Of a stretch of DNA of 64,000 nucleotides, positions 11,538 to 64,000 are shown piece by piece. How positions within the stretch are numbered: position 1 is the first letter of the stretch; each line of letters begins with the position of its first letter. The notes beneath the pieces were generated by a model. It did not search any database. It saw only the letters and a program-made list of their open reading frames with translations, and was not told the origin of the DNA. Source of the stretch: a virus; IMG/VR virus record IMGVR_UViG_3300045988_155520, positions 248,239 to 312,238 of that record. One strand, 5' to 3'. Made by a program: the position numbers and the translations under genes.

Positions 11538-11688
11538 ACGTTTTTTCTTTAAAAAATTCGCATTTGGTATAAGGGCATTCTTTGAATTGTTCATTCAAAT
11601 ATTTCCAACAATTAACGGTAACTATTCCATCACTACACTGATAGATAGGATGTGTACAATACTTAGGTATTTCACGCTCCGATTTCAT
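11530..11688 (-). CDS. small Cys-rich protein (short version of track ORF 11530..11823)
   Basis: Internal Met gives MKSEREIPKYCTHPIYQCSDGIVTVNCWKYLNEQFKECPYTKC.... The upstream part of the track ORF overlaps another gene out of frame. Confidence 0.35.
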   Translation of the reverse strand: MKSEREIPKYCTHPIYQCSDGIVTVNCWKYLNEQFKECPYTKCEFFKEKTYD

Positions 11689-22735: not shown

Positions 22736-24205
22736 TTATTTCTTTTTATTCTTCTTAAAGAACTTTGCAAACTTCTCCCCACCATACTCACCAGTAGTTA
22801 AATCTATAATCTCCCTAATGGTGTACTTGTCTTTATGGGGGTCTGGTAGTCGGCTCTCAATGAAGTATCTTGTACCGACTGAACATGCACCAGTAATAAT
22901 ACGATATGCAGCGATAGCTTCTTCATAAGATAAAGTATCGTCCAATGACAATTTTTCATAATCCGAGGTGTCCCTATTGCTTAACTTATATATAAGGTCG
23001 GCTTTAGCTTCTGCAAGAGTCTTACCATGCGCCCAATTGTTATCGCCATCTGTGACAAGGTAAAAAGGTTTATCTTCTTCTCCAATTTTATGTACTTTGT
23101 ATACATTGCCATGGTGAGAATCAATAACTGAGAAAATTCCATCAGCTTTAATATATCTCACACCATTTCTCTCCCAGAAAAGAGCCATATTTTCTAAATC
23201 ATGAATCTTTTTCTGCTGTTCTCGAGAAAGAGTCGTATTTACTTCTACGTTATCTGTAATACTTGTATCTCTTATATCAATAACTCCATCAACTGTAAGG
23301 CTATCTGGTAATGAGGTGATACCCGTACCTCTTAGGTCAAGAGAGTCACCCACTGTAAGATTGTCAGGTAGAGACTTAATGGGTGTATTGCTTAAGTCAA
23401 GATATCCACCAACCGTTAGATTATTAGGTAAAGATACAATATTTGTATCACTTAAATCAATTTCCCCTCCAACTATTAAGTTGTCTGGTATCTCTGTAAT
23501 AAGTGATTTAGATAAATTAAGCCATGACCTAACGGTTAAGTTGTTAGGAATCTTTTTAAGTTTAGTATTCATTAAACTAAGATAACCATTAACAGACAAA
23601 TTATCTGGAAGAGTTTCAATAGGGGTGTTGTTTAAATGCAGATTTCCGTTAACTATTAAAGAATTATGTAGCTCTGTGATATCTGTATTTTGCAAATATA
23701 GACTATTACCCACCTTTAAGTTATCAGGTAACTTTTTTATAGGTGTACAACTTAAAACAAGACTTTTACCAACTATTAAGTTGTCAGGAAGTTCCCTGAT
23801 AGATGAGTCAGTTAGAATTAAATCTTTATCAACTGTCAAGTTATATGGTAATTTCGTAATCTTTGTCCCCACCAAACTTAAATTTCCTCTTACATTTAAA
23901 TTATCAGGGAGTTTCGTGATAAGTGTGTAGTCCAAAATTATACTATCTCCTACTTTTAAACTATCTGGAATCTCGGTGATTTGTGTAAATAATAAAAAGA
24001 GAGTTTCTGAAACGGTTAAATTATTTGGTAACTTGTCGATATTTGTTTCAGATAAATTAAGAGAACCATTCACAGTAAGGTTATCAGGTAACTCTGTAAT
24101 ACTTGTGTTCATTAAGTTAAGATAACCGTCATAAAATAACTTCCCATCCTTAATGGTCAGTTTATAACCTGTTTCTTCCTTGAACTTTTCTATTATTTCA
24201 TTCAT
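22736..24205 (-). CDS. 20-residue (LPX-type) leucine-rich repeat protein with conserved C-terminal domain
   Basis: 14 tandem 20-aa repeats of LPDNLxVxGxLxLxxTxIxx (60-nt DNA period). The C-terminal domain is nearly identical in order to 10068..11537. Confidence 0.75.
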   Translation of the reverse strand: MNEIIEKFKEETGYKLTIKDGKLFYDGYLNLMNTSITELPDNLTVNGSLNLSETNIDKLPNNLTVSETLFLLFTQITEIPDSLKVGDSIILDYTLITKLPDNLNVRGNLSLVGTKITKLPYNLTVDKDLILTDSSIRELPDNLIVGKSLVLSCTPIKKLPDNLKVGNSLYLQNTDITELHNSLIVNGNLHLNNTPIETLPDNLSVNGYLSLMNTKLKKIPNNLTVRSWLNLSKSLITEIPDNLIVGGEIDLSDTNIVSLPNNLTVGGYLDLSNTPIKSLPDNLTVGDSLDLRGTGITSLPDSLTVDGVIDIRDTSITDNVEVNTTLSREQQKKIHDLENMALFWERNGVRYIKADGIFSVIDSHHGNVYKVHKIGEEDKPFYLVTDGDNNWAHGKTLAEAKADLIYKLSNRDTSDYEKLSLDDTLSYEEAIAAYRIITGACSVGTRYFIESRLPDPHKDKYTIREIIDLTTGEYGGEKFAKFFKKNKKK

Positions 24206-31563: not shown

Positions 31564-31621
31564 AATTTTTATTAATTAATCAAATAATCCTGCCCGAAGA
31601 ATTAAACATTTCAAAAAGTCG

Positions 31622-33241
31622 TCATACACTTCCAATACATTCACGACCTACCTTTGGTAGGCTTCTTCGAAACGATAACAATACTTCTTTCACTTTCTCA
31701 CGTCTAAGTAACCTTGGCTCAAAAGCACCATTATCAAGCTGTTTTAAGAGTTTATCTCGTAACACGGTTACAAGAACTCTATTTTTTATATTTTTTGCAG
31801 CATTAAAGTCTGCATTATCTTTATGCCCACATTCAACACATTCAAATGTTTCTTGATTTGGTCTATTACCATCTTCAATGCAGCCACATACAGGACACAT
31901 CTTTGATGTATAACTTGCTTGAACAGTTGAAACTGCGATGTCATACTTCCTTGCAATATGTTCCACCTCTTGTTTCAAACTACTTAAACCAAGAAAGCTA
32001 ACCTTTCGGTTGTAATTTATATCTTTATTGTCACCATCTTTGACGTAACACTTTCCAAATCCATTATTAAGATTTTCCATTACAATGTGACCAGTTCCTT
32101 TAATTTTTTCATTCTTACACATAGTAGCTATGGTTTGCTGTTCATTCTTAATAATTTTCTCCTTTAACTTGTTAAGTTTACGTTGTTTGCGTTTGCCTAC
32201 CTTATATTCTTTATTTTTCCCTTTAAATCTATCAATCTCAAGAGATAACTTGCAAAAATCATTAACTAATTTTCTATCATAGTCATAAGTGGTTTCATCT
32301 GATAAGCAGAACAAATTGTGTTTGCAATTAACATCTATGCCAATAGTCTGTCCATTTGGTTCTGGGATATACCTTTCACCATCTTTACATATGTTTACAT
32401 TCACTTGATGCTTCTTTTCATCGAATGTAAGAGTATATACATAATCAGGAGTGTTCTTTCTATAATCCTTCATACTTCCGTGCCATCCTTTATTAAAGGT
32501 AACTGGTATGTCAAATGATTTCCTACTGAGCCCACTAAGACTTATGAATGAATTGATAACTGACCCAAACCTGCGATTATAATCAATTATCTTTTTCTTT
32601 CTACATCTACCACGAAAGGTTAATGACCTGAACTCTATAGGATTGTTGGCATATTTGTCAATAATACGTTTTCTCTTTGATAATGCAAGTGCATATAACC
32701 TTTCAAAACCGAATTTATCACAACATCTTATTATATTGTTATAGAAGTCACGTTTATTAGCATCACATTTGTCAACGTTAGATTTGATATAAGCAATAGT
32801 ACCTTCATTTCCATACCTTGCAAGGTAAGTAAGACAATTGGATAAAGATGTGTGTTTCTTATCAACAATTACTTTTTTCAAGTCACCCTTTTTATTATTC
32901 TTTGTATCACGTTTATAACATTCAAAACCTTTGAATACAGATATTTCAAAGACAAGCTTACGTTGTATTGCATCAAATTTATTCTGATAACAAGTAAATA
33001 CTTGTGTATAAATTTGCGTATCAAAGGAACTTGGTACCGAACCTTTGAATTTTGTTCTCATTTCTTTTGCAAATTGGAACTTTGTATAATCAAGATAGTG
33101 CAATAAGTTTTCATTTACATGTTGTGATACTATGTTTTTATGTTTTTGAATAAGTACAGCAAAGTTATGTAACTCGTCATATTTCTGACGAGTTAAATCC
33201 TTTGAATGGAATACCTTTGTGTACTTACTCTGTATAATCAT
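31622..33241 (-). CDS. TnpB/Cas12f-like RuvC nuclease (539 aa)
   Basis: RuvC-I TIGIDVNCKHN, RuvC-II HIVMENLN, and a zinc ribbon CPVCG...CVECGHKDNADFNAAKNI carrying RuvC-III. The N-terminal half is longer than in canonical TnpB. Confidence 0.8.
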   Translation of the reverse strand: MIIQSKYTKVFHSKDLTRQKYDELHNFAVLIQKHKNIVSQHVNENLLHYLDYTKFQFAKEMRTKFKGSVPSSFDTQIYTQVFTCYQNKFDAIQRKLVFEISVFKGFECYKRDTKNNKKGDLKKVIVDKKHTSLSNCLTYLARYGNEGTIAYIKSNVDKCDANKRDFYNNIIRCCDKFGFERLYALALSKRKRIIDKYANNPIEFRSLTFRGRCRKKKIIDYNRRFGSVINSFISLSGLSRKSFDIPVTFNKGWHGSMKDYRKNTPDYVYTLTFDEKKHQVNVNICKDGERYIPEPNGQTIGIDVNCKHNLFCLSDETTYDYDRKLVNDFCKLSLEIDRFKGKNKEYKVGKRKQRKLNKLKEKIIKNEQQTIATMCKNEKIKGTGHIVMENLNNGFGKCYVKDGDNKDINYNRKVSFLGLSSLKQEVEHIARKYDIAVSTVQASYTSKMCPVCGCIEDGNRPNQETFECVECGHKDNADFNAAKNIKNRVLVTVLRDKLLKQLDNGAFEPRLLRREKVKEVLLSFRRSLPKVGRECIGSV

Positions 33242-33465: not shown

Positions 33466-35613
33466 TTAATTTTTAAATTTATCATACAAATCAATGATAC
33501 TCATTTCTCCATCGTCTTCTTCCTCAAGGAAATTAACGAAATTCTTTTCCATATCATTACGGCATATTTTTTCATTAAATAGAGTACCGTCACGCTTACA
33601 CTTTCTGAATATCTGAGTAATACGTCTAAGGTTCTTTACCATAAGATAATAATTGAACTTTACTTTAAATTTGAATCCAGTAGCATCTGTGACTACAACG
33701 CCTTCTACCGTATTATTAGTGCCTATATTAGTTCGTAAATAATCCCATAACTCATCATTAGTATTAATAATAAATTCGTCTGGCATTCTAAAAGATGTAT
33801 TTTCTCTTAAGAAATTCTTGAACTTATCTGACTCTTCGGTATATTTTTCACCAAGATTAAGCACATTATGGATAATATCCAACAATACTACATCTTCCTT
33901 ATCATATCTAATAATATGTGGGTCTTCTGTAGGACTAATCACTTCAAACACAGCCGAAGCATTCTCTTTCTTAAGAATATTCTTCAACAGGTCTTTATCG
34001 TGCTTACTAACAGTTTCGTTAAAAATACGTTCAAAACGTTCAGCAAAAGGACCACTATCGGTTGTCTTAGATGCAAATACTAACTGATTGTCAACTACTG
34101 ACATAATACCAAGATATCCATTCTCCTTTATCGTTACTTTTACAGGGAACTTAAGAGTTTCTTCAAGTTTCTTTCTCTTAGTTGACTTATGTTCGTCAAT
34201 ATTAAAGAACTTGTCATAAGAACGCATCTTTACTTCTCCTGTATTCTTATCAACGAATAAACCACGTGCCTTGATAGTAGCAAAGTTCCATTTCTTTCCA
34301 ATAAATGCATTACGATTAAAGTTGATAGAGTACATATTATGCTTACAACCCTTTACATTAACAAGACGACTGTTCATTATCTTCTTAACTTCTGGGTCAT
34401 CAACCTTATATACTACTTGCTGAAAAGCGTTCATATTCTCAATACTAAACACTTTATTCTCGTAATTTAATATAGCAGCATATTCTGGAGTTATAGAGAA
34501 AACTTTTAAGTTTCCACCAAACTCAACACTATCTTCAAGACAAATGGAATGGTCTGTAGACAGAGTGTTACGATGACCATGTATCTGTATAAAGTCCTGA
34601 CACTTTCCAAGTAGATAATTATCTTCATAAATTTTATCTACTTCCATATCATATCCGCCAACACCCTTAATCATATCGTTTGTTGGAATCGTAGTAAGGT
34701 TTGGAACAGATGTAAGACCGCCATGTGTTATCAAGTATTTCTGACCGCAGTATGTGAAAGCAAAGCACTGACGCATACGATAGTAAATCTTCTTTAACTC
34801 CTTGCGGACCTGTTCTAAAGGATAAACCTTGGTTATCTCATCAAGTGTCATCTTGAAGTATTCTGAAGTTATCTCCTCACCGTTAATCAAACGCCAGATA
34901 TGCTTCTCGTGATTTCCTTCAAGAAGGACCACGTTGTCATCATTATAATGTGACAATAGGAACTCATACACTTCTTTATTTTCGATACCACGGTCGAAAT
35001 AATCACCAACGAATACATATAACACGTCTGGGTTTAAAGAGCCACCAATGGCTTCTAAAAGGCATGTATGACAACCATGTACATCACCAATAATCTTTAC
35101 TTCTTTATATTCGGAAGCATCGGTAATGTAATAATTGAGAATATCTTCTACATTAGTAATTTCCTTAAAACGATTGGATAATTTATTTTCTTGAAGTATA
35201 CTGTATGCACGACGAATATCAGCATCTGGAACACGTCTAACTGTGTCACGTAGTAAATTACGTTCCAAACATTCTTCCAAGGTTGCTTCAACGTTATGCT
35301 GATAACAATTATAACGATACTTGTCAGCTAATTCTACATACTTAGATACAGCCTTGGATGTCTTATGAGTAGCATCAATCACTGTGAAATCACCATTACG
35401 CATACGATTCTCAAGCATAGTATGTAATGTGTCCCATACCATTTTATCGGAACGTGCGCTAATAGTCATGTCTCCTTCCTCATTCATCTTTGGAGAATGA
35501 AACATTAAACGTATATCATCGGCTGATAATGTATAATTAGTAAGACCATTTTCCTTAATGAAAGTAGACTTACCACTGCCCATACAACCTCTTAGAATTA
35601 GTAAAGTACGCAT
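33466..35613 (-). CDS. pnkp: trifunctional Pnkp-like RNA repair enzyme (5' kinase, metallophosphatase, ligase)
   Basis: P-loop GCMGSGKST plus SADDIR (T4 Pnk-like). GDVHGC...GDYFDRG...GNHE is calcineurin-type phosphoesterase. KENGYLG (ligase motif I, KxNG), EGVVV and FKVK are nucleotidyltransferase motifs IV and V. Confidence 0.75.
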   Translation of the reverse strand: MRTLLILRGCMGSGKSTFIKENGLTNYTLSADDIRLMFHSPKMNEEGDMTISARSDKMVWDTLHTMLENRMRNGDFTVIDATHKTSKAVSKYVELADKYRYNCYQHNVEATLEECLERNLLRDTVRRVPDADIRRAYSILQENKLSNRFKEITNVEDILNYYITDASEYKEVKIIGDVHGCHTCLLEAIGGSLNPDVLYVFVGDYFDRGIENKEVYEFLLSHYNDDNVVLLEGNHEKHIWRLINGEEITSEYFKMTLDEITKVYPLEQVRKELKKIYYRMRQCFAFTYCGQKYLITHGGLTSVPNLTTIPTNDMIKGVGGYDMEVDKIYEDNYLLGKCQDFIQIHGHRNTLSTDHSICLEDSVEFGGNLKVFSITPEYAAILNYENKVFSIENMNAFQQVVYKVDDPEVKKIMNSRLVNVKGCKHNMYSINFNRNAFIGKKWNFATIKARGLFVDKNTGEVKMRSYDKFFNIDEHKSTKRKKLEETLKFPVKVTIKENGYLGIMSVVDNQLVFASKTTDSGPFAERFERIFNETVSKHDKDLLKNILKKENASAVFEVISPTEDPHIIRYDKEDVVLLDIIHNVLNLGEKYTEESDKFKNFLRENTSFRMPDEFIINTNDELWDYLRTNIGTNNTVEGVVVTDATGFKFKVKFNYYLMVKNLRRITQIFRKCKRDGTLFNEKICRNDMEKNFVNFLEEEDDGEMSIIDLYDKFKN

Positions 35614-37493: not shown

Positions 37494-37594
37494 AATGTGA
37501 TTACCTTGCGGTATAACTTTACTAACATCCAGTTGACTACAAATTGAAGCCAAGTTACGTTGTAATTACCTTGCGGTATAATATTTATAACAGT
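37494..37594 (-). CRISPR. mini-array A: 36-nt repeat, 29-nt spacer, degenerate 36-nt repeat
   Basis: A2 at 37559-37594 is gttgtaattaccttgcggtataatatttataacagt. A1 at 37494-37529 matches it at 27 of 36 positions. The spacer at 37530-37558 is cagttgactacaaattgaagccaagttac. The minus orientation is inferred from the leader side, the degenerate distal repeat and the GNRA loop. Confidence 0.55.
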
Positions 37595-37690
37595 GGGTCT
37601 GTATAAGTGACTGATATATAAGTGTTTATATTGAAAATAAAATTCAAAAAACAGCCTTTATCAATCAGTTTTACATCTCTTCTATTCATT
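37595..37690 (-). other. conserved ~95-nt leader/scaffold-like segment of module A
   Basis: The ~45 nt nearest the repeat (tctgtataagtgactgatatataagtgtttatattgaaaataaaa) are almost identical to 44180-44225 and recognisably related to 59597-59640. Confidence 0.6.
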
Positions 37691-41134: not shown

Positions 41135-41857
41135 CTATACAGCTTTCATTATAAAATCTAATGCATCAACCATTAAACTACGTTTATATTCTTCTGTTTC
41201 TTTGAAGTTGCCCGTAAGACGAATAGTTCTATCATTAGCAATCCATTCGAAGTTAACCCACCGATGTTCGTTAGTAAGACGTTGTGAAACCATGAGGAAT
41301 AAAATTTCCCAATCAGCCTTGTTTATATTATCCAACTTAACAGAATGATTGTCTGATGTAAACAACTGTTGAATAATCTTATTAATAGTTGAATCAAGTG
41401 TTACATCAAAATTAAAGTGTTTAAACTTTAAAGTTTGATTGTGAGGAAGCCATGTAATATTCTCTTCTGGAATATTATATTCTCTCTTCAATCTATTTGC
41501 TAATCTGCGACTAACTTCATGATGTCTATTATGTCCAGTTTTAAATATAATATAATTTTGAGTATAAGTTGGATGTTCTGTAATATTATCAACTTCTCTC
41601 GTAGTCATACCATTATTACGCTGATAAATTTTAAGTAATTCTATCTCAAGTTGAATGGCAATTTCTGCATATCCCAATTTCTTAAGACTATCACAATAGC
41701 ATTTAATAACTGATGGTAAGTATTGATAATCACAGTTATTAAGTAACTCTTTGAAGAAATCTACATTTAAATTAGATTTACAACATTCTTTCTTTGGTTC
41801 ATTTTCTTGAGAATCATTAAACTCGTCAGTAAACATTATAACATTAATTTTTTCCAT
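41135..41857 (-). CDS. hypothetical protein
   Basis: ORF track. Confidence 0.5.
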   Translation of the reverse strand: MEKINVIMFTDEFNDSQENEPKKECCKSNLNVDFFKELLNNCDYQYLPSVIKCYCDSLKKLGYAEIAIQLEIELLKIYQRNNGMTTREVDNITEHPTYTQNYIIFKTGHNRHHEVSRRLANRLKREYNIPEENITWLPHNQTLKFKHFNFDVTLDSTINKIIQQLFTSDNHSVKLDNINKADWEILFLMVSQRLTNEHRWVNFEWIANDRTIRLTGNFKETEEYKRSLMVDALDFIMKAV

Positions 41858-43395: not shown

Positions 43396-44020
43396 TATAC
43401 TCTATTAAATGTTCTTCTAATTCTTTTATTGATGTCGCATTAAAATAATCCATATCGAAGAAAGTATTCTCTTCACAATTTCTTTCTTCAAATTCTATCT
43501 CAACACCTCTATTAATCCAATATTCTTTAACTTCTTTAAGATTACTTGACGGTGAATGTCCAAGGCTAATTGCAGAAGAAAAATACCGTGCATCCATGTC
43601 TCGTTTGTGATATTGTTCGATTTCATCTAACATTTCTAATACTTTTATAGTATTTTCTTTCCCAATACGTTCATACAGTGATGGTGTAGGAATATATTCG
43701 CTAATCATATCTCCATAACTATCTTTCTTATATTCCTTTTTATCACTTCCTGTTTCAAAATCATATCTGATAGTATCTATGTTATTTTTCCATTCAGGAA
43801 TAAGATGATATGCTTTAGCATACTTATTTAGAATATACTTAAACTGTTCATGTGAAAGATAGTGACGTTTAAAAGTAGGAAATTCTTTCTCTTCTTCAGG
43901 GTACTCTTTAGCTTCTTCCTTTAATTTGTCATAATCAGCTGAAGGTTGACTACATCTATACATTTCACGCAAACAAGCCTCTATAGCTTCGTCCAATATT
44001 TTACTTTTCAAATCCATCAT
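43388..44020 (-). CDS. hypothetical protein
   Basis: ORF track. Confidence 0.5.
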   Translation of the reverse strand: MMDLKSKILDEAIEACLREMYRCSQPSADYDKLKEEAKEYPEEEKEFPTFKRHYLSHEQFKYILNKYAKAYHLIPEWKNNIDTIRYDFETGSDKKEYKKDSYGDMISEYIPTPSLYERIGKENTIKVLEMLDEIEQYHKRDMDARYFSSAISLGHSPSSNLKEVKEYWINRGVEIEFEERNCEENTFFDMDYFNATSIKELEEHLIEYND

Positions 44021-44074: not shown

Positions 44075-44176
44075 CTTATAATTACCTTTCGGTATAATAT
44101 TCCTAACAGTTCGTGTTGCTCGGTCTTGGACTTCACCTCTCTTATAATTACCTTTCGGTATAATATTCCTAACAGT
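44075..44176 (-). CRISPR. mini-array B: two identical 36-nt repeats flanking a 30-nt spacer
   Basis: 44075-44110 and 44141-44176 are both cttataattacctttcggtataatattcctaacagt (36 of 36 identical). The spacer at 44111-44140 is tcgtgttgctcggtcttggacttcacctct, visibly GC-richer than the surroundings. Confidence 0.6.
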
Positions 44177-44272
44177 AGACTCTGTATAAGTGATTGATAT
44201 ATAAGTGTTTATATTAAAAATAAAACTCCAAAACATACTATTACCTATCACTTTTACAGCTTTTCTACTCAT
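44177..44272 (-). other. conserved ~95-nt leader/scaffold-like segment of module B
   Basis: Colinear with 37595-37690. The 80-aa track ORF 44030..44272 is its read-through translation. Confidence 0.6.
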
Positions 44273-45837: not shown

Positions 45838-47358
45838 CCCACAAAACTTTAGTTCGTGGGGGGAATTGAGCAACTATTCCTTCTTTCTGTTAATATACTT
45901 CTTCTTTTACTTATCAATCGTATATGTTTACAACTGATAGAACCTTTGTTTACTTTTGTTCCGTCAAGTCTTCTAATATCAAAGAAACCACTATCTCTTC
46001 TTCCAAATATATAATACAATTTCTTTTGATATTCAACTAAGTCAAATAATCTATACCCTTTTACCAAGAATGGTGATTGATTGAGTTTTTTCCTTCCACC
46101 TTTCAAGAAATTAGCCTTATGTATTTGTCTGTTCTGGCATCGCACTTTCTTTTGATAGAAATAATACCCAAGAGGTTTTGATTTAGGATTACCACTTATA
46201 CATCTTGCATCAACATGATGTTCTTTAGGTAGCCCATTAGTGATACGGGTGTTCTTTGTGATATATCCAAAAGTCATACTTACATTAGGATAGATATTCT
46301 TTAGTCTCTCGTATGTAGTCCAACGAGCAATCCCCATAAAGGCAGCATCCCTGAATGATGCGCCACGCTTTACCTTGATGTCTATTTTACCATTGTGATA
46401 TGCCTTGTGGCAAGATTCACATAGCGTGATTAGATTGCTTGGAGAGTTTCCTCCAGTTTTTCTACTTTCAATGTGATGTACATTCAAGATATGGTCTTTA
46501 CTCTTGCCTTTGCAATGTTGGCAAGTGTGGTTGTCTCTGAATAGCACATACTCACGCACATTAAAGAAACCAAGTTGTTCTCCTTGTTGATATTCTTTGC
46601 TTGATATACTTGGATTCTTAATCTTTTGTATGTCAAATGAAGCAGTTTCAACTATAATTTTAGTTATTGGCAGGAACTTATGTATCTTCTCTACAACGGT
46701 CAAGTGTGTTTGAATCTTATTCTCAACAGATGGAGCTAACCAACCTTTGTATTTTGAAGATACTCTGTTGTTAAAACGAGCCTTACGATAACGTAATCTA
46801 TTTCTACGAGTTCTTCTTTGTTCTCTACGAGTAGATAGTTTATCTACAATGTCATTTCTCAGTTCTACATCTGCTGCATACAATTCCTTCTTACTTGTTG
46901 TTGCGGATATGCCGATATGCTTACTACCAGCATCTACACCCAAACTTATGGGCTGAACGAAATGAGTTGTTTCATAATCCAATCGAATTGTGAATGGAAT
47001 ACGACATATAACGTGGGCAAGACCATTTTTCAATAATCTTCTCACTTTGCCAAATCTTTCAGTAGGCATTAGTGCTTGTCCATCTTTGTTAATTACGTAA
47101 ACCATTCGTTTTGCTTATTTTTTATTTTTACTGTAAGTCGGATTTCTCCGTTAAATGCTCATCGTCAATGTTATGGAGAGGTTTATATATTAGTAACACT
47201 ATTCCTACCTCACAGAATTGTTTAATCACTAACCTTAGAGCAAGGGGCTTGAGCAAACACCCACTTGGTAACTATATATTCTCTCCTAACGTAGCACTCG
47301 AAGTGCTTAGACTAATCAACTTGGGCTTTTTCAAGCCCACAAACCTTTAACCTGTGGG
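45838..47358 (-). mobile_element. IS200/IS605-family IscB element without tnpA
   Basis: Bounded by related hairpins: cccacaaaactttagttcgtggg (45838-45860) and cccacaaacctttaacctgtggg (47336-47358). It encloses iscB and a structured upstream region. Confidence 0.6.
45849..47105 (-). CDS. iscB: IscB RNA-guided nuclease (RuvC + HNH)
   Basis: PLMP-type N-terminus (DGQALMPT), RuvC-I LGVDAGSKHIG, Arg-rich bridge helix RREQRRTRRNRLRYRKARF, RuvC-II IIVETASFD, HNH CQHCKG...NVHHIESRKTGGNSPSNLITLCESCHKAYH, RuvC-III EHHVDA. Confidence 0.85.
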   Translation of the reverse strand: MVYVINKDGQALMPTERFGKVRRLLKNGLAHVICRIPFTIRLDYETTHFVQPISLGVDAGSKHIGISATTSKKELYAADVELRNDIVDKLSTRREQRRTRRNRLRYRKARFNNRVSSKYKGWLAPSVENKIQTHLTVVEKIHKFLPITKIIVETASFDIQKIKNPSISSKEYQQGEQLGFFNVREYVLFRDNHTCQHCKGKSKDHILNVHHIESRKTGGNSPSNLITLCESCHKAYHNGKIDIKVKRGASFRDAAFMGIARWTTYERLKNIYPNVSMTFGYITKNTRITNGLPKEHHVDARCISGNPKSKPLGYYFYQKKVRCQNRQIHKANFLKGGRKKLNQSPFLVKGYRLFDLVEYQKKLYYIFGRRDSGFFDIRRLDGTKVNKGSISCKHIRLISKRRSILTERRNSCSIPPTN

Positions 47359-47375
47359 TAGTGACAACATTAATA
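47106..47375 (-). ncRNA. putative IscB omega RNA (scaffold plus 5' guide)
   Basis: About 250 nt directly upstream of iscB, GC-richer than the surroundings. It contains several hairpins (cccacagg..tttgtggg, gggcttgaaaaagccc, agcacttcgagtgct) and a long-range GGAGAG/CTCTCC complement. The position matches known IscB systems. Ends were not mapped. Confidence 0.5.
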
Positions 47376-55808: not shown

Positions 55809-56282
55809 CTATTTCTTTTTATATATCATAAATTTAAATTTGATGTTATTTTCTTCTTGGGTCAAAGACTCGTAAATATTTTTCCACTTACTATCTGAAA
55901 AAATATTTAAAGGAAAGTAACTATCCCCTTCTGTTTTATCTTCCACCAGCGTAATATATGCTTCACTAATCAGATTCTCATCTAAAAAAGCATTATAAAT
56001 GGAAGAACCACCGATAACAAATACGTCTTCATTCTTTATATTCAGATGACGCATTAATGTAATCGCTCCATTAATTGAATTAACGAAATGAACACTTGTG
56101 TCTCCAAATTTTTCTGTACATAATTTTGGATTAGACGTAAGGACAATGTTGGTCCTATTCTTAAGGGGCTTCTGATTTGGTAAAGAAAGATACGTATTCA
56201 TACCCATAATGACAGTGTTACCATCCGTAAACCGTTTAAAATTATCCATATCATTTGGAATATGGTAAAGTGAACTACACAC
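55809..56282 (-). pseudogene. folA: dihydrofolate reductase lacking about 20 N-terminal residues
   Basis: LYHIPNDMDNFKRFT aligns with PWNLPADLAWFKRNT. VIMGMNTY, PLKNRTNIVLT, VIGGSSIY and GDSYFP are also present. The beta-strand 1 / IG segment is absent, and the frame hits a stop within the TnpB element end. Confidence 0.7.
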
Positions 56283-56420
56283 AAGTTGAAGACTTGTGTG
56301 CTTCGGGTTTCACTGAGGAATGGTCTTTCAAATGATTGACTCTTACTTCCTCTCCACCCGTGTAATCGACAGTCCCTGCCGATTTTGTATTATTTAAACC
56401 GAAACGAAGAATATTGATTG
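56261..56420 (-). ncRNA. putative TnpB omega RNA (3' end of tnpB plus flanking guide)
   Basis: Position by analogy with IS605 TnpB systems. A perfect 8-bp hairpin cacacaag-tcttcaa-cttgtgtg (56278-56300) sits at the element end. Extent was not mapped. Confidence 0.4.
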
Positions 56421-57483
56421 CTGCATTCACATCACGGTCATGATGACTATGACAATGAGGACACTCCCATTCACGAACCGACAAATCTTTAATGTCTTTG
56501 TAAACATACCCACAGGTACTACAAGTCTGTGAGGATGGGAAGTAACGGTCTATCTTCACGACCTTCTTGTCGTTCCATTCCGCCTTATAGATAAGTATGG
56601 AAACAAAATGTCCCCAACTTGCATCAGAAATGGACTTGGCAAGACGATGATTTCTCGTCATACTCTTAACATTCAAATCTTCGATACAAATTGTATCATA
56701 TCTTCGAACAAGAGAGATAGAGCACTTATGCAGATAGTCGGCACGACTATTGGAAATCTTTTCATGAAGTCTGGCAACTTTGAGTTTTTGGTTTTCAAAC
56801 CCTTTGCTGCCTTTAACTTTGCGAGAAAGATGTTGTTGTGCTTTAGCAAGTTTGCACTCATACCTTTTTGTATATCGGTTATTATTAAAAGTTTCTCCAT
56901 CAGAAGTGGTAAGCAAATCCTTTAAACCCATATCTACACCAATTGACTTGTCAGTCTTCTTAATCGGTGTAATGTATTCTTCTTCCGTGAAGACGGAAAC
57001 AAAATACTTTCCACTTGGTGTCTTGGTAATAGTTACCTTCCCTATTTTACCTTTTATCTCACGGTGTACACGACACTTAATACCTTCCTTGAACTTGCGT
57101 ATGAAAAGTCTACCACATGCTACAGATGCAAATTTTGGAACGGTAAAACTATTTTTGGAGTGTTTGGATTTGAATTTAGGAAACTTAGCACGCTTCTTAA
57201 AGAAATTATTATAGGCTGATTCAAGACTGCGGATTGCAAACTGCAATATTTGGGCATTTACCTCCTTTAACCATGCAGTTTCTTCCTGCTTCTTTAATGT
57301 GGTAAGCGTTTTACACTGCGCATAGAAGTTGTCGCTATTACCAGTGAGCCTATATTGTTCTTTACGTTGATTGAGAAAGTAATTGTACACAAAGCGAGAA
57401 CATCAAAAGTGCTTTGCCAGCAATTCGGTTTGTTCCCTGTTTGGATACAGTCTGAACCTGTATGTTCTGTTAATCTTTCTCAT
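56275..57483 (-). pseudogene. tnpB: IS605-family TnpB with in-frame TGA at codon 27
   Basis: ATG at 57483 gives MRKINRTYRFRLYPNREQTELLAKHF, then TGA (57403-57405), then CSRFVYNY... continuing into the track ORF. RuvC-I IGVDMGLKDL, RuvC-II ICIEDLNV, and CSTCG...CPHCHSHHDRDVNAAINI are present. Confidence 0.85.
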
Positions 57484-58262: not shown

Positions 58263-58430
58263 TTACTTCACGATAGAATCCGCAACAACTGAATCTGTAG
58301 AAGCACTATCAGTACTATCGACTACAGTTGTGTCAGAATCTTTTTGCTGAGCCTTACCCTTAACATTGTTTCCACATGAAGCAAAAGTAAGTGCTACGCA
58401 AGCTGTAAATACAAAAATTAAACTCTTCAT
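58263..58430 (-). CDS. 55-aa lipoprotein (not in ORF track)
   Basis: Hand translation gives MKSLIFVFTACVALTFASCGNNVKGKAQQKDSDTTVVDSTDSASTDSVVADSIVK. Confidence 0.55.
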   Translation of the reverse strand: MKSLIFVFTACVALTFASCGNNVKGKAQQKDSDTTVVDSTDSASTDSVVADSIVK

Positions 58431-58555: not shown

Positions 58556-59173
58556 TTAATATACAAAGTTATCTTTTTGATGAAATTCTTGACGTAACTC
58601 AAGTAATCTTGTGTGAAATCCTAATTTAAAATTCTCCAGAAATAAACGTAATTTCATTTTAAAAGGTATAATACCTGCTTTCACAGCAGCACCTTTAATC
58701 AGTTTATCATGATTAAACGCCCAACGCATTTTATCTATATTTTTTAGGTTAACCCAAGCAATCGCACCTACTTCGTTCTTCTCCATATTCTGTTTTGAAA
58801 ACTTAAAGTCATCAATAATTGCATGCTGATACACCGCATAATATCTAAATGTAATATTCTGACGCTTATCATCATTAGGGTCATCATTAAAAGACCAAAA
58901 CTTAATTAAATGTGATGGTACTTTTATTCCTGTCTCTTCAAGTGTTTCACGCTGTGCTGCTTCTTTGGTTGTTTCGTTATAATCAAGATAGCCACACTGA
59001 CAATTCCATGCATTAATCAATTCTGGGTCAGGCGTACCTTCGCCACGCTGTGAAGCCAAGACGCACCATTCACCACGCAAGTTCTTGCAAAACACAAACA
59101 TGACAACGCTTACTGAACGGCTAATCCAATGTTCTTGTCCTTTATTGTCTTTTAACGAAAAATTATTCATCAT
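58556..59173 (-). CDS. Nudix hydrolase
   Basis: Perfect Nudix box GYLDYNETTKEAAQRETLEETGI (GX5EX7REUXEEXGU). Confidence 0.8.
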   Translation of the reverse strand: MMNNFSLKDNKGQEHWISRSVSVVMFVFCKNLRGEWCVLASQRGEGTPDPELINAWNCQCGYLDYNETTKEAAQRETLEETGIKVPSHLIKFWSFNDDPNDDKRQNITFRYYAVYQHAIIDDFKFSKQNMEKNEVGAIAWVNLKNIDKMRWAFNHDKLIKGAAVKAGIIPFKMKLRLFLENFKLGFHTRLLELRQEFHQKDNFVY

Positions 59174-59510
59174 TTAAATCTATTAATTCAATATTATAAT
59201 ATAGGTCGTTAGATAATCTTTTACATAGTGTAGTAAAAAAATCAACCAATTTACTAAGATTACCAGATAAAACTCCACATGATATAACAACACTTTCTAT
59301 ATTTGAATATCTGGAGAGTTTATAACTAATATTATAATCAAGTACATTTTCTTTTAATTTTAAAAAAGAAAATATTATATCAATTAGTCCTTCATGTCTA
59401 ACTTTAGTCACTGATATGAATTTCTTAATATCTTTTCTTTTTATTTTCTCTTTTCTTATTATTCTATCTTTTACAGACATCAATATCTTATATTCGTCTT
59501 CATTTGTCAT
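59163..59510 (-). CDS. hypothetical protein
   Basis: ORF track. Confidence 0.45.
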   Translation of the reverse strand: MTNEDEYKILMSVKDRIIRKEKIKRKDIKKFISVTKVRHEGLIDIIFSFLKLKENVLDYNISYKLSRYSNIESVVISCGVLSGNLSKLVDFFTTLCKRLSNDLYYNIELIDLNDE

Positions 59511-59558
59511 ATGTTTGATGTGTATGTTTTAAAATCGTTACATTTTGTAACGCTTTGA

Positions 59559-59594
59559 GTTTATATTACCTTGCGGTTTATTATTTCTAACAAT
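59559..59594 (-). repeat. solitary copy of the 36-nt mini-array repeat (module C)
   Basis: gtttatattaccttgcggtttattatttctaacaat matches repeat A2 at 29 of 36 positions. It is followed on the leader side (59595-59688) by a diverged copy of the conserved leader. Confidence 0.55.
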
Positions 59595-59722
59595 CGACTA
59601 TCTATAACTTCTTGATAAATAAATAATTATATTACATTTTCTTTCAAAAATTCACTATCAAACACTATATCCATATCTAATTTACTCATTTTTTGTTTCA
59701 TCATCTTTTCAAATATCAATTG

Positions 59723-59730
59723 CAAATTTA
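59723..59730 (-). promoter_or_regulatory. -7 box TAAATTTG upstream of module C
   Basis: Lies between the terminator at 59827-59852 and the module. A 7-bp hairpin (59536-59552) follows the repeat. Confidence 0.4.
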
Positions 59731-59826
59731 ACTAAATGTTTTTATTTAACCAAATATTAATAGTTAACAAATATTAAATTAATATGTTCAGATAGATAAC
59801 TCAAAAATACTTGAATATAAATTAAT

Positions 59827-59852
59827 AAAAAAAGAGTGGCTAACAACCACTC
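59827..59852 (-). terminator. hairpin + T-run terminator downstream of nadD
   Basis: agagtgg-6 nt-ccactct with T-runs on both strands. Confidence 0.55.
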
Positions 59853-60166
59853 TTAACTTTTTTGTTTCGTTACATGCAAGGGGTAAGTCCAGCCTGTATA
59901 ACTTTACCATAAGTCATTTCCATTCTATTACAATACCACTTGAATGTCTTTTTTAATAAATTCAACATAATCCTTACTTCACTATTTTTTTATAATTATT
60001 TCCAAATTAAGCCTATAATAAACTCATTTGCAATAATATATATTTGTTGAATTTAATATATATCGTTTTTGATATGCCTATTTTATAAAAATGCTATTAT
60101 TCTTGATTAAAGTCAAAGTTGATTGAAAAAATGTATAACTTTATATATTTCTCGTTCAATAAAATG

Positions 60167-60730
60167 TTAATGATATAAATTCAACTCTTTTATCAACTTT
60201 TCATTTTCAGCATTTATATATGGAAAAAAAATTTTCTTTTCTTTTACCATTCGTCTTATGTATGTCGAGGAAATAGGAATAACAATATCTTGTTCTATTG
60301 GTATCGCATAATCTGGAATTTCATCCGTCTTATTTCTTTTTAATCCAACAATAGAAAAATATGGTTCTATATCTGAATTATAATTTTTCCATTTCGGTAT
60401 GTCATTAACACAATCAGAACCAGCTATGATAAATAACTCATTGTCTTTGTATTTCTCTCTAAGAAGCGATAATACTTTATATGAATAGTTTGTACCATCA
60501 ACCAATAATTCATCCTTAGAAAGGCAGCATTTATCTCCAAAATGTGAAATTGCATTCTCTATCATTTGGCAACGATAAGCAAAATCAGTAGCTTTAGAAT
60601 CCTTCCATGGATTCTGAACAGTTGGTACAACTATCACTTTGTCAAAGTCACTATTCAGTACACTATTAATCATTTGCACATGACCAATATGTATCGGGTC
60701 GAAACTACCAAGCAAAAATCCTATTTTCAT
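60167..60730 (-). CDS. nadD: nicotinate/nicotinamide mononucleotide adenylyltransferase
   Basis: GSFDPIHIGH (HxGH), NPWK, SYKVL and ISSTYIR match NadD motifs. Confidence 0.8.
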   Translation of the reverse strand: MKIGFLLGSFDPIHIGHVQMINSVLNSDFDKVIVVPTVQNPWKDSKATDFAYRCQMIENAISHFGDKCCLSKDELLVDGTNYSYKVLSLLREKYKDNELFIIAGSDCVNDIPKWKNYNSDIEPYFSIVGLKRNKTDEIPDYAIPIEQDIVIPISSTYIRRMVKEKKIFFPYINAENEKLIKELNLYH

Positions 60731-61809: not shown

Positions 61810-61944
61810 TCTTTAAAACTATTTTTTATATGATTTGCAGATAAAATTCCAACAATAATACAAATAATTATAGTGATAAAACTTGCATCCATAATTTTTT
61901 GTTGAATATATATTTTTTGCTTATTGGAACAACATTAAAAATAG

Positions 61945-62016
61945 TAACGCCAACGGGACTCGAACCCGTGACTCCACCGTGAAAGGGTGGCGACTTAACC
62001 ACTTGTCGATGGCGCT
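61945..62016 (-). tRNA. tRNA-Glu (anticodon TTC)
   Basis: Hand-folded cloverleaf: acceptor AGCGCCA/TGGCGTT, anticodon arm CCACC-CTTTCAC-GGTGG, T arm ACGGG-TTCGAGT-CCCGT. Confidence 0.8.
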
Positions 62017-62025
62017 ATAAAAATG

Positions 62026-62096
62026 AGCGAGCGAACGGAATCGAACCGTCACACCCAGCTTGGAAGGCTGGAACACTACCATTATGCTACGCTCGC
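62026..62096 (-). tRNA. tRNA-Gly (anticodon TCC)
   Basis: Acceptor GCGAGCG/CGCTCGC, anticodon arm CCAGC-CTTCCAA-GCTGG, T loop TTCGATT. Confidence 0.8.
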
Positions 62097-62116
62097 AATC
62101 TGCATTTTTTTTAATG

Positions 62117-62197
62117 TGAGTAGTGGTGGTTTTGAACTACCGAAACTATAAGCAGCAGATTTACAGTCTACCGTATATGAAAATCTACGCAAATCTC
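62117..62197 (-). tRNA. degenerate tRNA-Tyr-like sequence (anticodon GTA), possibly a pseudogene
   Basis: The 3' two-thirds closely resemble bacterial tRNA-Tyr (GTAGA-CTGTAAA-TCTGC, long variable arm, GGTAG-TTCAAAA-CCACC). The best 5' strand, GAGATTT, pairs at only 4 of 7 acceptor positions, and the D loop lacks GG. Confidence 0.35.
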
Positions 62198-62367
62198 TGA
62201 TTTAAGTACTTTTCATTTCTTGCTTCAACCTATCACTACTTTTTAGGAACACTTAGAGTGTTCGGTCATCCATAGGAGGATAGTCCACAAGCGTAAATTA
62301 GGTGCTACGGACACCTACTTATTTAAAAGATTATTATTTCTGTTATAAAATCAATAAAAATTATTAG

Positions 62368-62440
62368 TTGGATGAGGTGGAATCGAACCACCGACACATG
62401 GACCTTCAAACCACTGCTCTACCGACTGAGCTATCACCCA
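62368..62440 (-). tRNA. tRNA-Phe (anticodon GAA)
   Basis: Acceptor TGGGTGA/TCATCCA, D arm GCTC-AGTCGGTA-GAGC, anticodon loop TTGAAGG, T arm GGTGG-TTCGATT-CCACC. Confidence 0.75.
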
Positions 62441-62445
62441 TTATG

Positions 62446-62518
62446 AGCTGAATGTGGGACTCGAACCCACAGCCTACTGATTACAAATCAGTTGCACAAC
62501 CAATCGTGCTCATTCAGC
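62446..62518 (-). tRNA. tRNA-Thr (anticodon TGT)
   Basis: Acceptor GCTGAAT/ATTCAGC, anticodon arm ACTGA-TTTGTAA-TCAGT, T arm GTGGG-TTCGAGT-CCCAC. Confidence 0.8.
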
Positions 62519-62535
62519 TATTAATTATTTAATTA

Positions 62536-63363
62536 TCATTTCTGTTTAATGTTCCACATAGGAGTTTCTCCAGAACCAACAAGTACATCAATATTAGCAC
62601 CCTGTTTACTTGCAATTACATCCCATGCACGAAGTTGAATAAACTGCTGTGGAGAAAGTGCCAACTCATTCATATAAGCCTTGTCCGCAATAGCCTTATT
62701 CTTTTCAGCTTTGGCTCTTGCTAACTCCATTTCAGCCTTCTTCTCCTGTGTCTGCTTTGCTTGAATTGCAGCAGCAGTCTTGTTCATTTCATCGAGCTGT
62801 TCCTTATTAGGCATAACTCTATCTGTAGTAACCTGCTGAATAGTAACAGGGAAGTTTCCTCTTGTCTTTGAAAGTTGCTGAATATAAATTCTCATTGACT
62901 TAGCAATTTCAGTGTCAAGTTTATTAAGTACTTCACGATTGCTCATCAAATCAAATGGAGAACACGTAGAAACATATTCACGTACCTTATTCTTGAAATA
63001 AGGTTCAATGAATGTTTTATACCAGTCTTCACCATAATTCTCCAACAATTCAGGAGTATGCCCTTTCTGAACTTGCAATACCATATACATGCTTACATCC
63101 AAAGGTGTGTTATCGTTTGAAAGCAAGTCATCGAACTTGAACTCCACCTTTTGAGGAAGAATATAAAAACTCACAGCTGATGTTGTCCATGCAATACATG
63201 TTAAGTCATTAACAGGAGTAGGGTCTACACCAGTACTACCAACAAACCATGGCTTCATCTTTAAAGCTACTTCTTCATCGTATGATGGGTTTGTAAATGA
63301 ACAGCTTGTTAATGCTGTTACAGCAAAGATTGCAGTAGCAATAAACGTAACAATTTTCTTCAT
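62536..63363 (-). CDS. SPFH/band-7-like lipoprotein
   Basis: Signal peptide plus lipobox (AVTALTSCSF). The C-terminal Ala/Lys/Glu-rich helix and QQFIQLRAWDVIAS... are typical of prohibitin-like proteins. Confidence 0.5.
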   Translation of the reverse strand: MKKIVTFIATAIFAVTALTSCSFTNPSYDEEVALKMKPWFVGSTGVDPTPVNDLTCIAWTTSAVSFYILPQKVEFKFDDLLSNDNTPLDVSMYMVLQVQKGHTPELLENYGEDWYKTFIEPYFKNKVREYVSTCSPFDLMSNREVLNKLDTEIAKSMRIYIQQLSKTRGNFPVTIQQVTTDRVMPNKEQLDEMNKTAAAIQAKQTQEKKAEMELARAKAEKNKAIADKAYMNELALSPQQFIQLRAWDVIASKQGANIDVLVGSGETPMWNIKQK

Positions 63364-63387
63364 ATATGCTTTGATTTAAATTAATAT

Positions 63388-63648
63388 CTATTCTTCTGAA
63401 GTTGGTCTTATTCTTAAAACTTCTGAGAACTCATCTTTCGTCAGATACCAGAATGGTTTACTTCCATTCTTGTAATACATTTTAGTGAAATCATCTGGAT
63501 GTAATGCCAAATGAAATAATACATGAAAAATATTAAAAACGTTACTATCATCCCAACCTGAATTTTTTGCTCTTAAAAATATTCCAATTGGGAAAAGTAT
63601 GATTCCAATAATAATTCCAAGTAATAAACTTAAAAATACTGTTAACAT
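63388..63648 (-). CDS. small membrane protein
   Basis: N-terminal hydrophobic helix. Confidence 0.5.
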   Translation of the reverse strand: MLTVFLSLLLGIIIGIILFPIGIFLRAKNSGWDDSNVFNIFHVLFHLALHPDDFTKMYYKNGSKPFWYLTKDEFSEVLRIRPTSEE

Positions 63649-63667
63649 ATTTATGTTGCTTTAAAAA

Positions 63668-63743
63668 GTCCTCGCTGATGGACTTGAACCACCGACCACT
63701 TGGGTATAAGCCGAGTGCTCTAACCAACTGAGCTAAGCGAGGA
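63668..63743 (-). tRNA. tRNA-Ile (anticodon TAT)
   Basis: Acceptor TCCTCGC/GCGAGGA, D arm AGCTC-AGTTGGTTA-GAGC, anticodon loop CTTATAC, T loop TTCAAGT. Confidence 0.75.
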
Positions 63744-63752
63744 AAAATTATG

Positions 63753-63844
63753 CGGAGATTATAGGACTCGAACCTATACACCATATTACTACGATTACTG
63801 ATAGTTTAGCAAACTATTGCCTTACCAATTAGGCTTAAATCTCC
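63753..63844 (-). tRNA. tRNA-Ser (anticodon GCT), class II
   Basis: Acceptor GGAGATT/AATCTCC, anticodon arm ATAGT-TTGCTAA-ACTAT, long variable arm, T arm ATAGG-TTCGAGT-CCTAT. Confidence 0.8.
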
Positions 63845-63852
63845 AATATAAG

Positions 63853-63939
63853 AGGAGAGTAAGAGATTCGAACTCTTGGAACATTTTACTGTCCTCTGGT
63901 TTTCAAGACCAGCGCTTTAAACCACTCAGCCAACTCTCT
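63853..63939 (-). tRNA. tRNA-Ser (anticodon TGA), class II
   Basis: Anticodon arm CTGGT-CTTGAAA-ACCAG, long variable arm, T arm AAGAG-TTCGAAT-CTCTT. The acceptor has an A1-C72 mismatch. Confidence 0.7.
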
Positions 63940-63943
63940 AGAA

Positions 63944-64000
63944 TGGTTGCAGGAGAGGGAGTCGAACCCCCGACCTCTGGGTTATGAGCCCAGCAAGCTA
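63944..64000 (-). tRNA. tRNA-Met/Ile2 type (anticodon CAT), 5' part beyond the window, CCA encoded
   Basis: Anticodon arm CTGGG-CTCATAA-CCCAG, T loop TTCGACT, 3' end TGCAACCA. Confidence 0.6.

Follow-up and report, generated by a model that had tools for sequence, protein, structure and literature searches.

The solitary CRISPR (repeats that are short, palindromic, clustered and regularly interspaced) repeat found at 59559-59594 in a 64-kb stretch of viral DNA (positions 248,239 to 312,238 of IMG/VR virus record IMGVR_UViG_3300045988_155520; the whole stretch is referred to below as the window) is, with good probability, the remnant, now in an empty, zero-spacer state, of a third CRISPR locus belonging to the type V (Cas12f/TnpB-like) system that the phage itself encodes. 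Sequence comparison makes it very highly probable that this leader-repeat unit, termed module C, is an empty CRISPR locus by origin, and it probably has no dedicated function. The comparisons show homology of its leader and repeat to those of real arrays, an origin of the repeat by recombination, a recurrent solitary state and a cognate effector encoded in the same genome.

All features of module C lie on the minus strand. Its 36-nt repeat (59594 to 59559; ATTGTTAGAAATAATAAACCGCAAGGTAATATAAAC) is of mixed make-up, the 5' 30 nt being of the leader-proximal type and the 3' 6 nt of the terminal type. It is preceded by an AT-rich leader of ~95 nt (59595-59689) that starts at the shared AAAAATGAGTA motif, and the leader in turn by a putative promoter, a Bacteroidota-type -7 box (TAAATTTG, 59730-59723) that is a consensus match only. 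An earlier note on this DNA had placed this box after a terminator, and there is indeed a strong intrinsic terminator (59854-59832, a 10-bp stem and, on the minus strand, a T-run), at which the transcription unit upstream of the module C promoter ends; the box, TTAGTTAAnTTTGCAA, shows no variation across 13 orthologous loci. On the minus strand of the window boxes of the form TAnnTTTG are ~2x denser in intergenic than in coding DNA and often occur 18-31 nt ahead of start codons. The distance from box to repeat is 129 nt, within the 250 bp upstream that is used in defining a solitary repeat unit, the repeat is intergenic and no full or partial repeat lies within 100 bp of it. The claim that there is neither a second repeat nor a spacer was also correct: within 250 nt on either side the best 36-mer match is 18-19/36, and for stretches of 250 nt the null of the top-scoring 36-mer is 18.3 +/- 1.5, a chance-level result from which it follows that the repeat is truly solitary. 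At least two direct repeats with unique spacers, as expected of a CRISPR array, are found at the other two loci, A and B, but not at C and, since C has one repeat and zero spacers, it is filed as an emptied array locus and not as an array.

A repeat search of the window recovered a five-copy family (37494-37529, 37559-37594, 44075-44110, 44141-44176 and 59559-59594), the core of which, AACCGCAAGGT, occurs four times with at most one mismatch against an expectation of 0.31. At locus A (37494-37689, minus strand) a leader of 95 nt is followed by the repeats 37559-37594 and 37494-37529, with a single spacer of 29 nt between them; at locus B (44075-44272, minus strand) the leader measures 96 nt, and a single spacer of 30 nt separates two repeats that are identical. 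The module C repeat is identical to the leader-proximal A repeat (37559-37594) at 29/36 positions, the figure given previously, to the distal A repeat at 24/36 and to the B repeats at 27/36. The three leaders (95 nt in C and A, 96 nt in B) align over ~95 nt, with the islands TTTTGAA, AATATAA, TTATCA and TTATAG common to all, and the proposal of a third copy of the module, conserved in leader length and islands, can be upheld; the likeness is not limited to a palindrome but spans the whole of leader and repeat. The ACC-GCAA-GGU hairpin is also retained according to RNA folding prediction. Among 48 distinct repeats of the family the ACC/GGU stem is invariant and the loop is only ever of the GNRA type (GCAA, GAAA, GUAA or GAGA), which would fit a structured RNA handle, although compensatory changes are absent.

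Locus A appears stable, the same arrangement being found in 4 other assemblies examined, and its orthologues in two related contigs (related contigs are given L numbers; here L032 and L034) have several spacers. Locus B is polymorphic, with two identical repeats and one spacer in the window and L089 and a single repeat in L090-L093, which carry the same downstream 210-aa gene as the window, and its orthologues in L032 and L035 have 8-10 repeats. Both B repeats in the window end in a degenerate, terminal-type 3' end, ATTATAAG. The spacer counts at A, B and C in the window are 1, 1 and 0, where single arrays of relatives hold as many as 9 or more and, taken with the solitary state of locus B in sister strains, this suggests a general erosion of arrays. 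The 20-nt seed of spacer A has no match in IMG/VR, and that of spacer B yielded a single IMG/VR match of 21/30 with a flank that is not T-rich, probably by chance.

The history of module C can be followed in the repeat itself. It is an exact (36/36) combination of positions 1-30 of the first repeat (R1) and positions 31-36 of the terminal repeat of the array in sister strain L078. The solitary repeat of the L079 type, one base off that of the window, is likewise an exact 36/36 hybrid of the R1 and terminal repeats of L082, and the solitary repeat of L072 is an exact 36/36 hybrid of R1 and R2 of L065. From these three exact hybrids of first and last repeats it is concluded that recombination between repeats deleted the spacers on at least three occasions. 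The 3' end of the module C repeat is ATATAAAC instead of the consensus ATCACAAC and departs from it at columns conserved in 36-43 of the 48 repeats; the terminal repeats of relatives depart from the consensus 3' end in the same way. Spacers are known to be lost by repeat-repeat recombination, for which a hybrid of first and terminal repeats is the expected product, and a leader with one repeat constitutes a minimal CRISPR locus. Module C, with its hybrid repeat and its leader, resembles such a locus but differs in that it is found in a phage genome, that the event is recurrent and affects two loci, and that there is no known adaptation module to refill it.

In related phages the same locus is occupied by arrays. 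When IMG/VR was scanned for the repeat core, and likewise for the C-type leader, this leader and the box TTAGTTAAnTTTGCAA were found to head arrays with six repeats in L037, five in L043 and L062/L064, four in L040, three in L044 and two in L006/L058 and L065. In all, the module C leader aligns with the leaders of arrays of 2-6 repeats at this locus in 12 related contigs. Use of a one-repeat pattern (leader-repeat-flank) revealed more solitary cases, namely L071 (same sequence as L073) and L072. The closest strains were obtained via ORF115, a 115-aa open reading frame (ORF; 59163-59510, minus strand) that is the first gene 3' of the module C repeat, and its 90%-identity cluster. Amongst these a three-repeat array was found in L078, L082, L083 and L085, and the locus was solitary in L074-L077, L079-L081, L084, L086 and L087; the downstream flank in the array-bearing sister strains L078 and L082 is identical to that of the window.

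The earlier note had also recorded a 7-bp hairpin about 6 nt beyond the repeat, and this palindrome (CGTTACA-AAA-TGTAACG, 59552-59536, minus strand) is supported by folding (z = -3.6) and lies 6 nt 3' of the repeat and ~26 nt 5' of the ORF115 start codon. Wherever an ORF115 cassette follows, the GTTACA-N3-TGTAAC hairpin and ORF115 always come after the terminal repeat, and relatives with the other flank type are without this flank. Because the same hairpin thus follows multi-repeat arrays, it belongs to the downstream flank of the array or to the 5' untranslated region of ORF115 and is not special to the stand-alone unit. A role as a multi-copy operator was rejected, as the hairpin sequence, GTTACANNNTGTAAC, occurs only once in the window, and so was a role as a terminator, as the T-run that follows it is weak and not conserved in relatives. 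No further TAnnTTTG box is present between 59723 and 59510 and, as there is no promoter box in between, ORF115 is probably co-transcribed with the module C leader-repeat. A small leader peptide, MSKLDMDIVFDSEFLKENVI (ending in a stop), beginning at 59689 was also considered and rejected, since the reading frame is broken in L040/L043 (MSK*), L065 and L071, and the leader is therefore taken to be non-coding; the differences between A and B, which are almost all non-synonymous, also speak against coding.

Directly 5' of the terminator, promoter and leader C, strains L078 and L080 carry a paralogue of the effector gene, 75% identical in nucleotides to 31597-32680 of the window, which ends exactly where homology to the window starts, at 59920. 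In some strains, then, locus C is an effector-adjacent array in the canonical cas-leader-array order. The intervening conserved segment of ~90 nt (59832-59920, minus strand; L078 956-1045, L080 1087-1175), which ends in the strong terminator and the counterpart of which directly follows the paralogous cas12f-like gene in both strains, contains a 15-codon micro-ORF, MTYGK(V/A)I(Q/K)AGLTPCM, in which strains differ by synonymous or conservative changes. The segment is not significantly complementary to the repeat, and could be a small RNA or encode a small peptide linked to the effector.

In relatives the repeat family is that of a working CRISPR system. Their repeats are 36 nt long, with the consensus ATTGTTAGTAAyAyTwwACCGnAAGGTAATCACAAC, their spacers are 28-31 nt, and the arrays displayed reach at least 10 repeats; within an array the repeats next to the leader are identical, and those farther from it are degenerate at the 3' end. 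Outside arrays, 5/51 unique spacers match related phages of this family, three of them the window itself with 2-5 mismatches and T-rich 5' flanks (at 58383-58412, 43429-43456 and 41697-41720). The window-matching spacers derive from locus C of L062 and from locus B of L032 and L035, and as the spacers of relatives match the window, it follows that this phage or its kin are targets of close relatives. A further match of the L062 spacer is to the lipoprotein gene of L062 itself, with the mismatches at positions proximal to the protospacer adjacent motif (PAM). The 5' flanks of the protospacers fall into five families (TTTG; TATT/TTTA/TTTT; CTTT/CTTC; TACT; TTTT/TTAT) and are for the most part rich in T, and a reading of these as a T-rich 5' PAM is to be taken with the proviso that there are only 5 protospacer families and that the genome is AT-rich. 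Such flanks are consistent with type V targeting and with phage-versus-phage competition. CRISPR targeting of one phage by another has been reported for huge phages (PMC7162821) and reviewed (PMC11656645).

The likely partner of the repeat family is a 539-aa Cas12f/TnpB-like RuvC effector encoded at 31622-33241 on the minus strand. It is matched by the Pfam Cas12f1-like TNB domain (PF07282, 8.9e-17) and by PADLOC Cas12f (3.6e-20), its best relatives in the PDB are Cas12f and TnpB entries (~1e-11 to 4e-12), and the RuvC D/E/D residues are intact in the motifs GIDVN, MENLN and NADFNAAKNI. It nevertheless falls below the curated NCBIfam cut-offs, scoring 66.9 against 450 bits for Cas12f2 and 94.1 against 100 for guided_TnpB, and is therefore regarded as a divergent relative. 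The GenBank phage collection gave only remote TnpB matches to it, and a scan of IMG/VR gave 26 loci at 64-91% identity. Neither a trans-activating CRISPR RNA (tracrRNA) nor an anti-repeat is conspicuous in the window, in the flanks of the effector gene or in the leaders, and the energies of RNA duplexes with the repeat were no better than those of shuffled sequences for leaders A and C, the effector flanks and the segment 59832-59920. Leader B alone pairs with its own repeat better than shuffles do (-18.2 kcal/mol, reached by 1% of shuffles, p ~0.01), which is not the case at A or C.

A simple course of events can be suggested for module C. The leader-proximal repeat underwent homologous recombination with the terminal one, crossing over within the ACCGCAAGGTAAT core that both share, and every spacer was lost. 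Promoter and leader were left in place, followed by a single hybrid repeat and by the flank normally found 3' of the array. The -7 box would still drive a transcript through leader, repeat and hairpin into ORF115 and the NUDIX gene beyond it. The lone repeat may still be recognised or cleaved by the effector but would have no guide, the only pseudo-guide being the adjacent flank, for which the window appears to hold no target, and the empty unit would presumably add no interference. Its persistence would be accounted for because deletion is both recent and recurrent. A number of considerations weigh against this account. Transcription and processing of module C are themselves deduced from its sequence. 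The solitary state is common, occurring at 8/11 places listed among the closest strains and also at locus B, and selection for a spacerless unit would explain such a frequency as well as neutral decay. Promoter and leader are fully conserved in the solitary alleles and no decay is visible, although the divergence times are short. Lastly, the identical B repeats with their terminal-type ends hint that solitary units may re-expand, in which case 'relic' would be too weak a term.

The solitary repeat unit had been put forward as an RNA anti-CRISPR candidate, a proposal of which the architecture and the label stand but the function is not supported, given the phage's own effector and arrays and the evidence of array collapse. 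On such a hypothesis a promoter-driven, spacerless repeat RNA would titrate either the effector of the host or the Cas12f-like effector of co-infecting relatives into dead complexes. Viral solitary repeat units are found 3' of a promoter and are not associated with cas genes, they match the CRISPR subtype of the host in 83% of prophage cases, and the RNA anti-CRISPRs (Racrs) bind Cas proteins (PMC10651486). Module C is similar to these (Faure et al. 2019; Camara-Wilpert et al. 2023, PMC10651486) in being a single intergenic repeat of CRISPR type just 3' of a predicted promoter, within 250 bp, with its hairpin kept; the 2-5 mismatch matches between relatives' spacers and this phage imply that inter-phage CRISPR conflict exists, and the solitary state is frequent among strains. 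It is, however, associated with the effector at 31622-33241 and with arrays A and B, so that its repeat family is that of the phage's own system and not that of a host system, and a decoy would compete with the CRISPR RNAs (crRNAs) of A and B and poison the phage's own system. A bacterial array with the core was not found either, as the exact 19-nt core ACCGNAAGGTAATCACAAC had only 5 isolated matches, none in an array, in 185,579 bacterial and archaeal species-representative genomes, where ~17 would be expected by chance in 596 Gb on both strands, and no Rfam repeat family matches C. The same leader heads arrays of 2-6 repeats in relatives and the repeat is an exact hybrid of first and terminal repeats, that is, the unit is a collapsed array with a retained leader, arising simply and at least three times; its 3' handle is degenerate, of the terminal type, at conserved positions. 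No known anti-CRISPR gene is present near module C, and ORF115 is without a family. An anti-CRISPR function is on these grounds highly unlikely, and none of the observations calls for a decoy against co-infecting relatives. One of the five 19-mer matches, in a Prevotella sp. metagenome-assembled genome (JALFOF010000004.1; L068 4737-4812), forms an arm of a long inverted repeat, GTTGTGATTACCTTGCG...ACCGTAAGGTAATCACAAC, with A/T runs on either side; it is not an array, and probably represents a terminator-like hairpin that matches by coincidence.

Another possibility is that a leader with a single repeat is a functional ground state, a reloadable array in which spacer insertion duplicates the lone repeat. 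Two identical terminal-type repeats (ATTATAAG) stand at locus B in the window and in L089 where strains with the same downstream gene have one, exactly the pattern to be expected if spacer acquisition had duplicated a solitary repeat. L043 has one leader-proximal repeat-spacer unit more than L040, and every solitary allele keeps an intact leader and promoter. In E. coli, moreover, a leader and one repeat are reportedly enough for adaptation, as Yosef et al. are said to have found in 2012. Against this, Cas1, Cas2 and Cas4 are not among the families listed, at most 25 to a list, for the 76 ORFs of the window, the polymorphism at B and the difference between L040 and L043 are equally well explained by loss between identical repeats, and phage CRISPR systems are almost always without adaptation genes (PMC7162821), so that reloading, whilst conceivable, is unlikely. 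The broader notion that spacerless leader-repeat units are a maintained state, whether as RNA decoys against the Cas12f-like effectors of relatives or as reloadable platforms, is put forward because the units turn up repeatedly, at locus B as well as at locus C, and are common in the strains, and is decidedly unlikely. A crRNA-like regulatory RNA, in which the lone repeat and its flank (TCAAAGCGTTACAAAATGTA...) would guide the effector to repress a promoter in the manner of CreR and crlRNA, possibly that of its own operon, might account for the conservation of flank and hairpin after the terminal repeat in all loci with the ORF115 cassette, and the palindromic flank does match the opposite strand of its own locus at 22/30 positions, beside a GTTT flank. 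The self-match is the palindrome only, with mismatches at PAM-proximal positions 2 and 6, no other match to the flank with 10 or fewer mismatches exists in the 64-kb window, the same flank follows multi-spacer arrays and is not specific to the solitary state, and relatives of the other flank type do without it; such a role is extremely improbable. CreR/crlRNA (bioRxiv 10.1101/2024.12.27.630466) is similar in that a fixed sequence with the potential to act as a guide comes after a repeat that is solitary or degenerate; module C differs from it in that no partial target with a PAM-like flank was found within the window. CRISPR arrays are repeat-rich and vary between strains in metagenomes, and an assembler might have collapsed a real array. 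The 350 nt upstream of ORF115, however, show 0 mismatches across four assemblies (MEGAHIT k119, a scaffolded assembly and two Logan assemblies) that stem from different samples and assemblers, and as the locus is base-identical in all four the solitary state is not an artefact of assembly. In addition, the parent repeats share only ~13 nt, below the labelled k-mer sizes of k119 to k141, and with k-mers longer than the shared segment the reads must span the hybrid repeat; artefact can be given almost no credence.

The emptied array of module C may also be set against other virus-borne systems. The type V-F/Cas14-like systems of huge phages (Al-Shayeb et al. 2020, PMC7162821) are alike in that they belong to huge phages, here a gut phage of ~313 kb, in having a compact Cas12f/TnpB-like RuvC effector, in directing spacers against related phages and in that no adaptation genes were seen near the arrays. 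Here, in contrast, three arrays are dispersed over 28 kb and not beside the effector, each with a homologous leader of ~95 nt, the effector falls far under the curated Cas12f thresholds, no tracrRNA was found, and module C is an emptied array and not a whole system. Virus-borne mini-arrays (Medvedeva et al. 2019, reviewed in PMC11656645) are comparable with A and B, which have one spacer each, and with the relatives whose spacers target close viruses, but use host Cas proteins and repeats identical to those of the host, whereas here the effector is encoded by the phage and C is spacerless.

The source of the window is a huge gut phage of ~313 kb. Contigs as long as 313 kb carry proteins identical to those of the window, close homologues are encoded by contigs that measure 304-322 kb, and related IMG/VR contigs reach 350 kb. 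Nearly all window genes are on the minus strand, and four YopX-domain ORFs and a crAss001_48-like protein are present; the promoter motif points to a host among the Bacteroidota. The GenBank phage collection contains no DNA match to 59100-60200, and an Rfam scan of 59400-60200 gave only an insignificant L20-leader match (E = 0.91). ORF115 has no family in Pfam, NCBIfam or PHROG, and its single-sequence AlphaFold model (mean predicted local distance difference test score, pLDDT, 47) was unusable. It is followed by a NUDIX gene (58556-59173, minus strand), one of several genes around module C related to nicotinamide adenine dinucleotide (NAD) (58556-59173, 60167-60730 and other ORFs), which comprise an NMN/NaMN (nicotinamide/nicotinic acid mononucleotide) adenylyltransferase-like gene (CTP_transf_like) and this NUDIX hydrolase; elsewhere in the window are NAPRTase, isochorismatase and Macro/DarG-like domains. 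This set recalls phage NAD+ reconstitution pathways, which act against NAD-depleting defences.

A number of other features were observed in the window. A second, more canonical TnpB (56275-57483, minus strand) lies ~2 kb downstream of module C, with OrfB_IS605 at 2.2e-27 and PADLOC Cas12u4/Cas12f models down to 1.9e-59, and is called in sister assemblies as a 371-402-aa gene with HTH_OrfB_IS605. Directly 5' of the cas12f-like gene is a 715-aa ORF (33466-35613, minus strand), a fusion of polynucleotide kinase-like AAA_33, metallophosphatase and T4 RNA ligase 1 that looks like an RNA-repair enzyme. An Rfam HEARO RNA (47150-47365, minus strand, 127.7 bits, E = 4e-26) lies directly 5' of a 418-aa ORF (45849-47105), and RRXRR and HNH domains are present among the window ORFs; taken together these suggest an IscB plus omega-RNA (OMEGA) module besides the Cas12f-like system. 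There is also a tRNA cluster of at least seven genes (61944-64000, minus strand; Glu, Gly, Phe, Thr, Ile-tat and two Ser, with one gene cut by the end of the window), and two paralogous large ORFs (10068-11594 and 22736-24205, minus strand) have 60-nt periodic repeats and BspA-type leucine-rich repeats (PF13306, 9e-29).

The case of module C is a caution against taking every promoter-driven solitary repeat of a phage for an RNA anti-CRISPR. It is the comparison of sister strains that identifies it as the phage's own emptied array, down to the recombination product, and it would thus be a decayed array of a phage-encoded type V system, a kind already known. The family to which it belongs consists of gut phages of ~313-350 kb with a compact Cas12f/TnpB-like effector, three dispersed arrays and spacers against close relatives, in which arrays flip among multi-, one- and zero-spacer states in near-identical strains. 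This makes it a natural system for the study of array turnover, and one that could be used to test for acquisition without known adaptation genes. Were solitary units to prove to be decoys or reloadable loci, this would be new biology for inter-phage conflict, and reloadable platforms would mean active spacer acquisition in phages with no recognised Cas1-Cas2.

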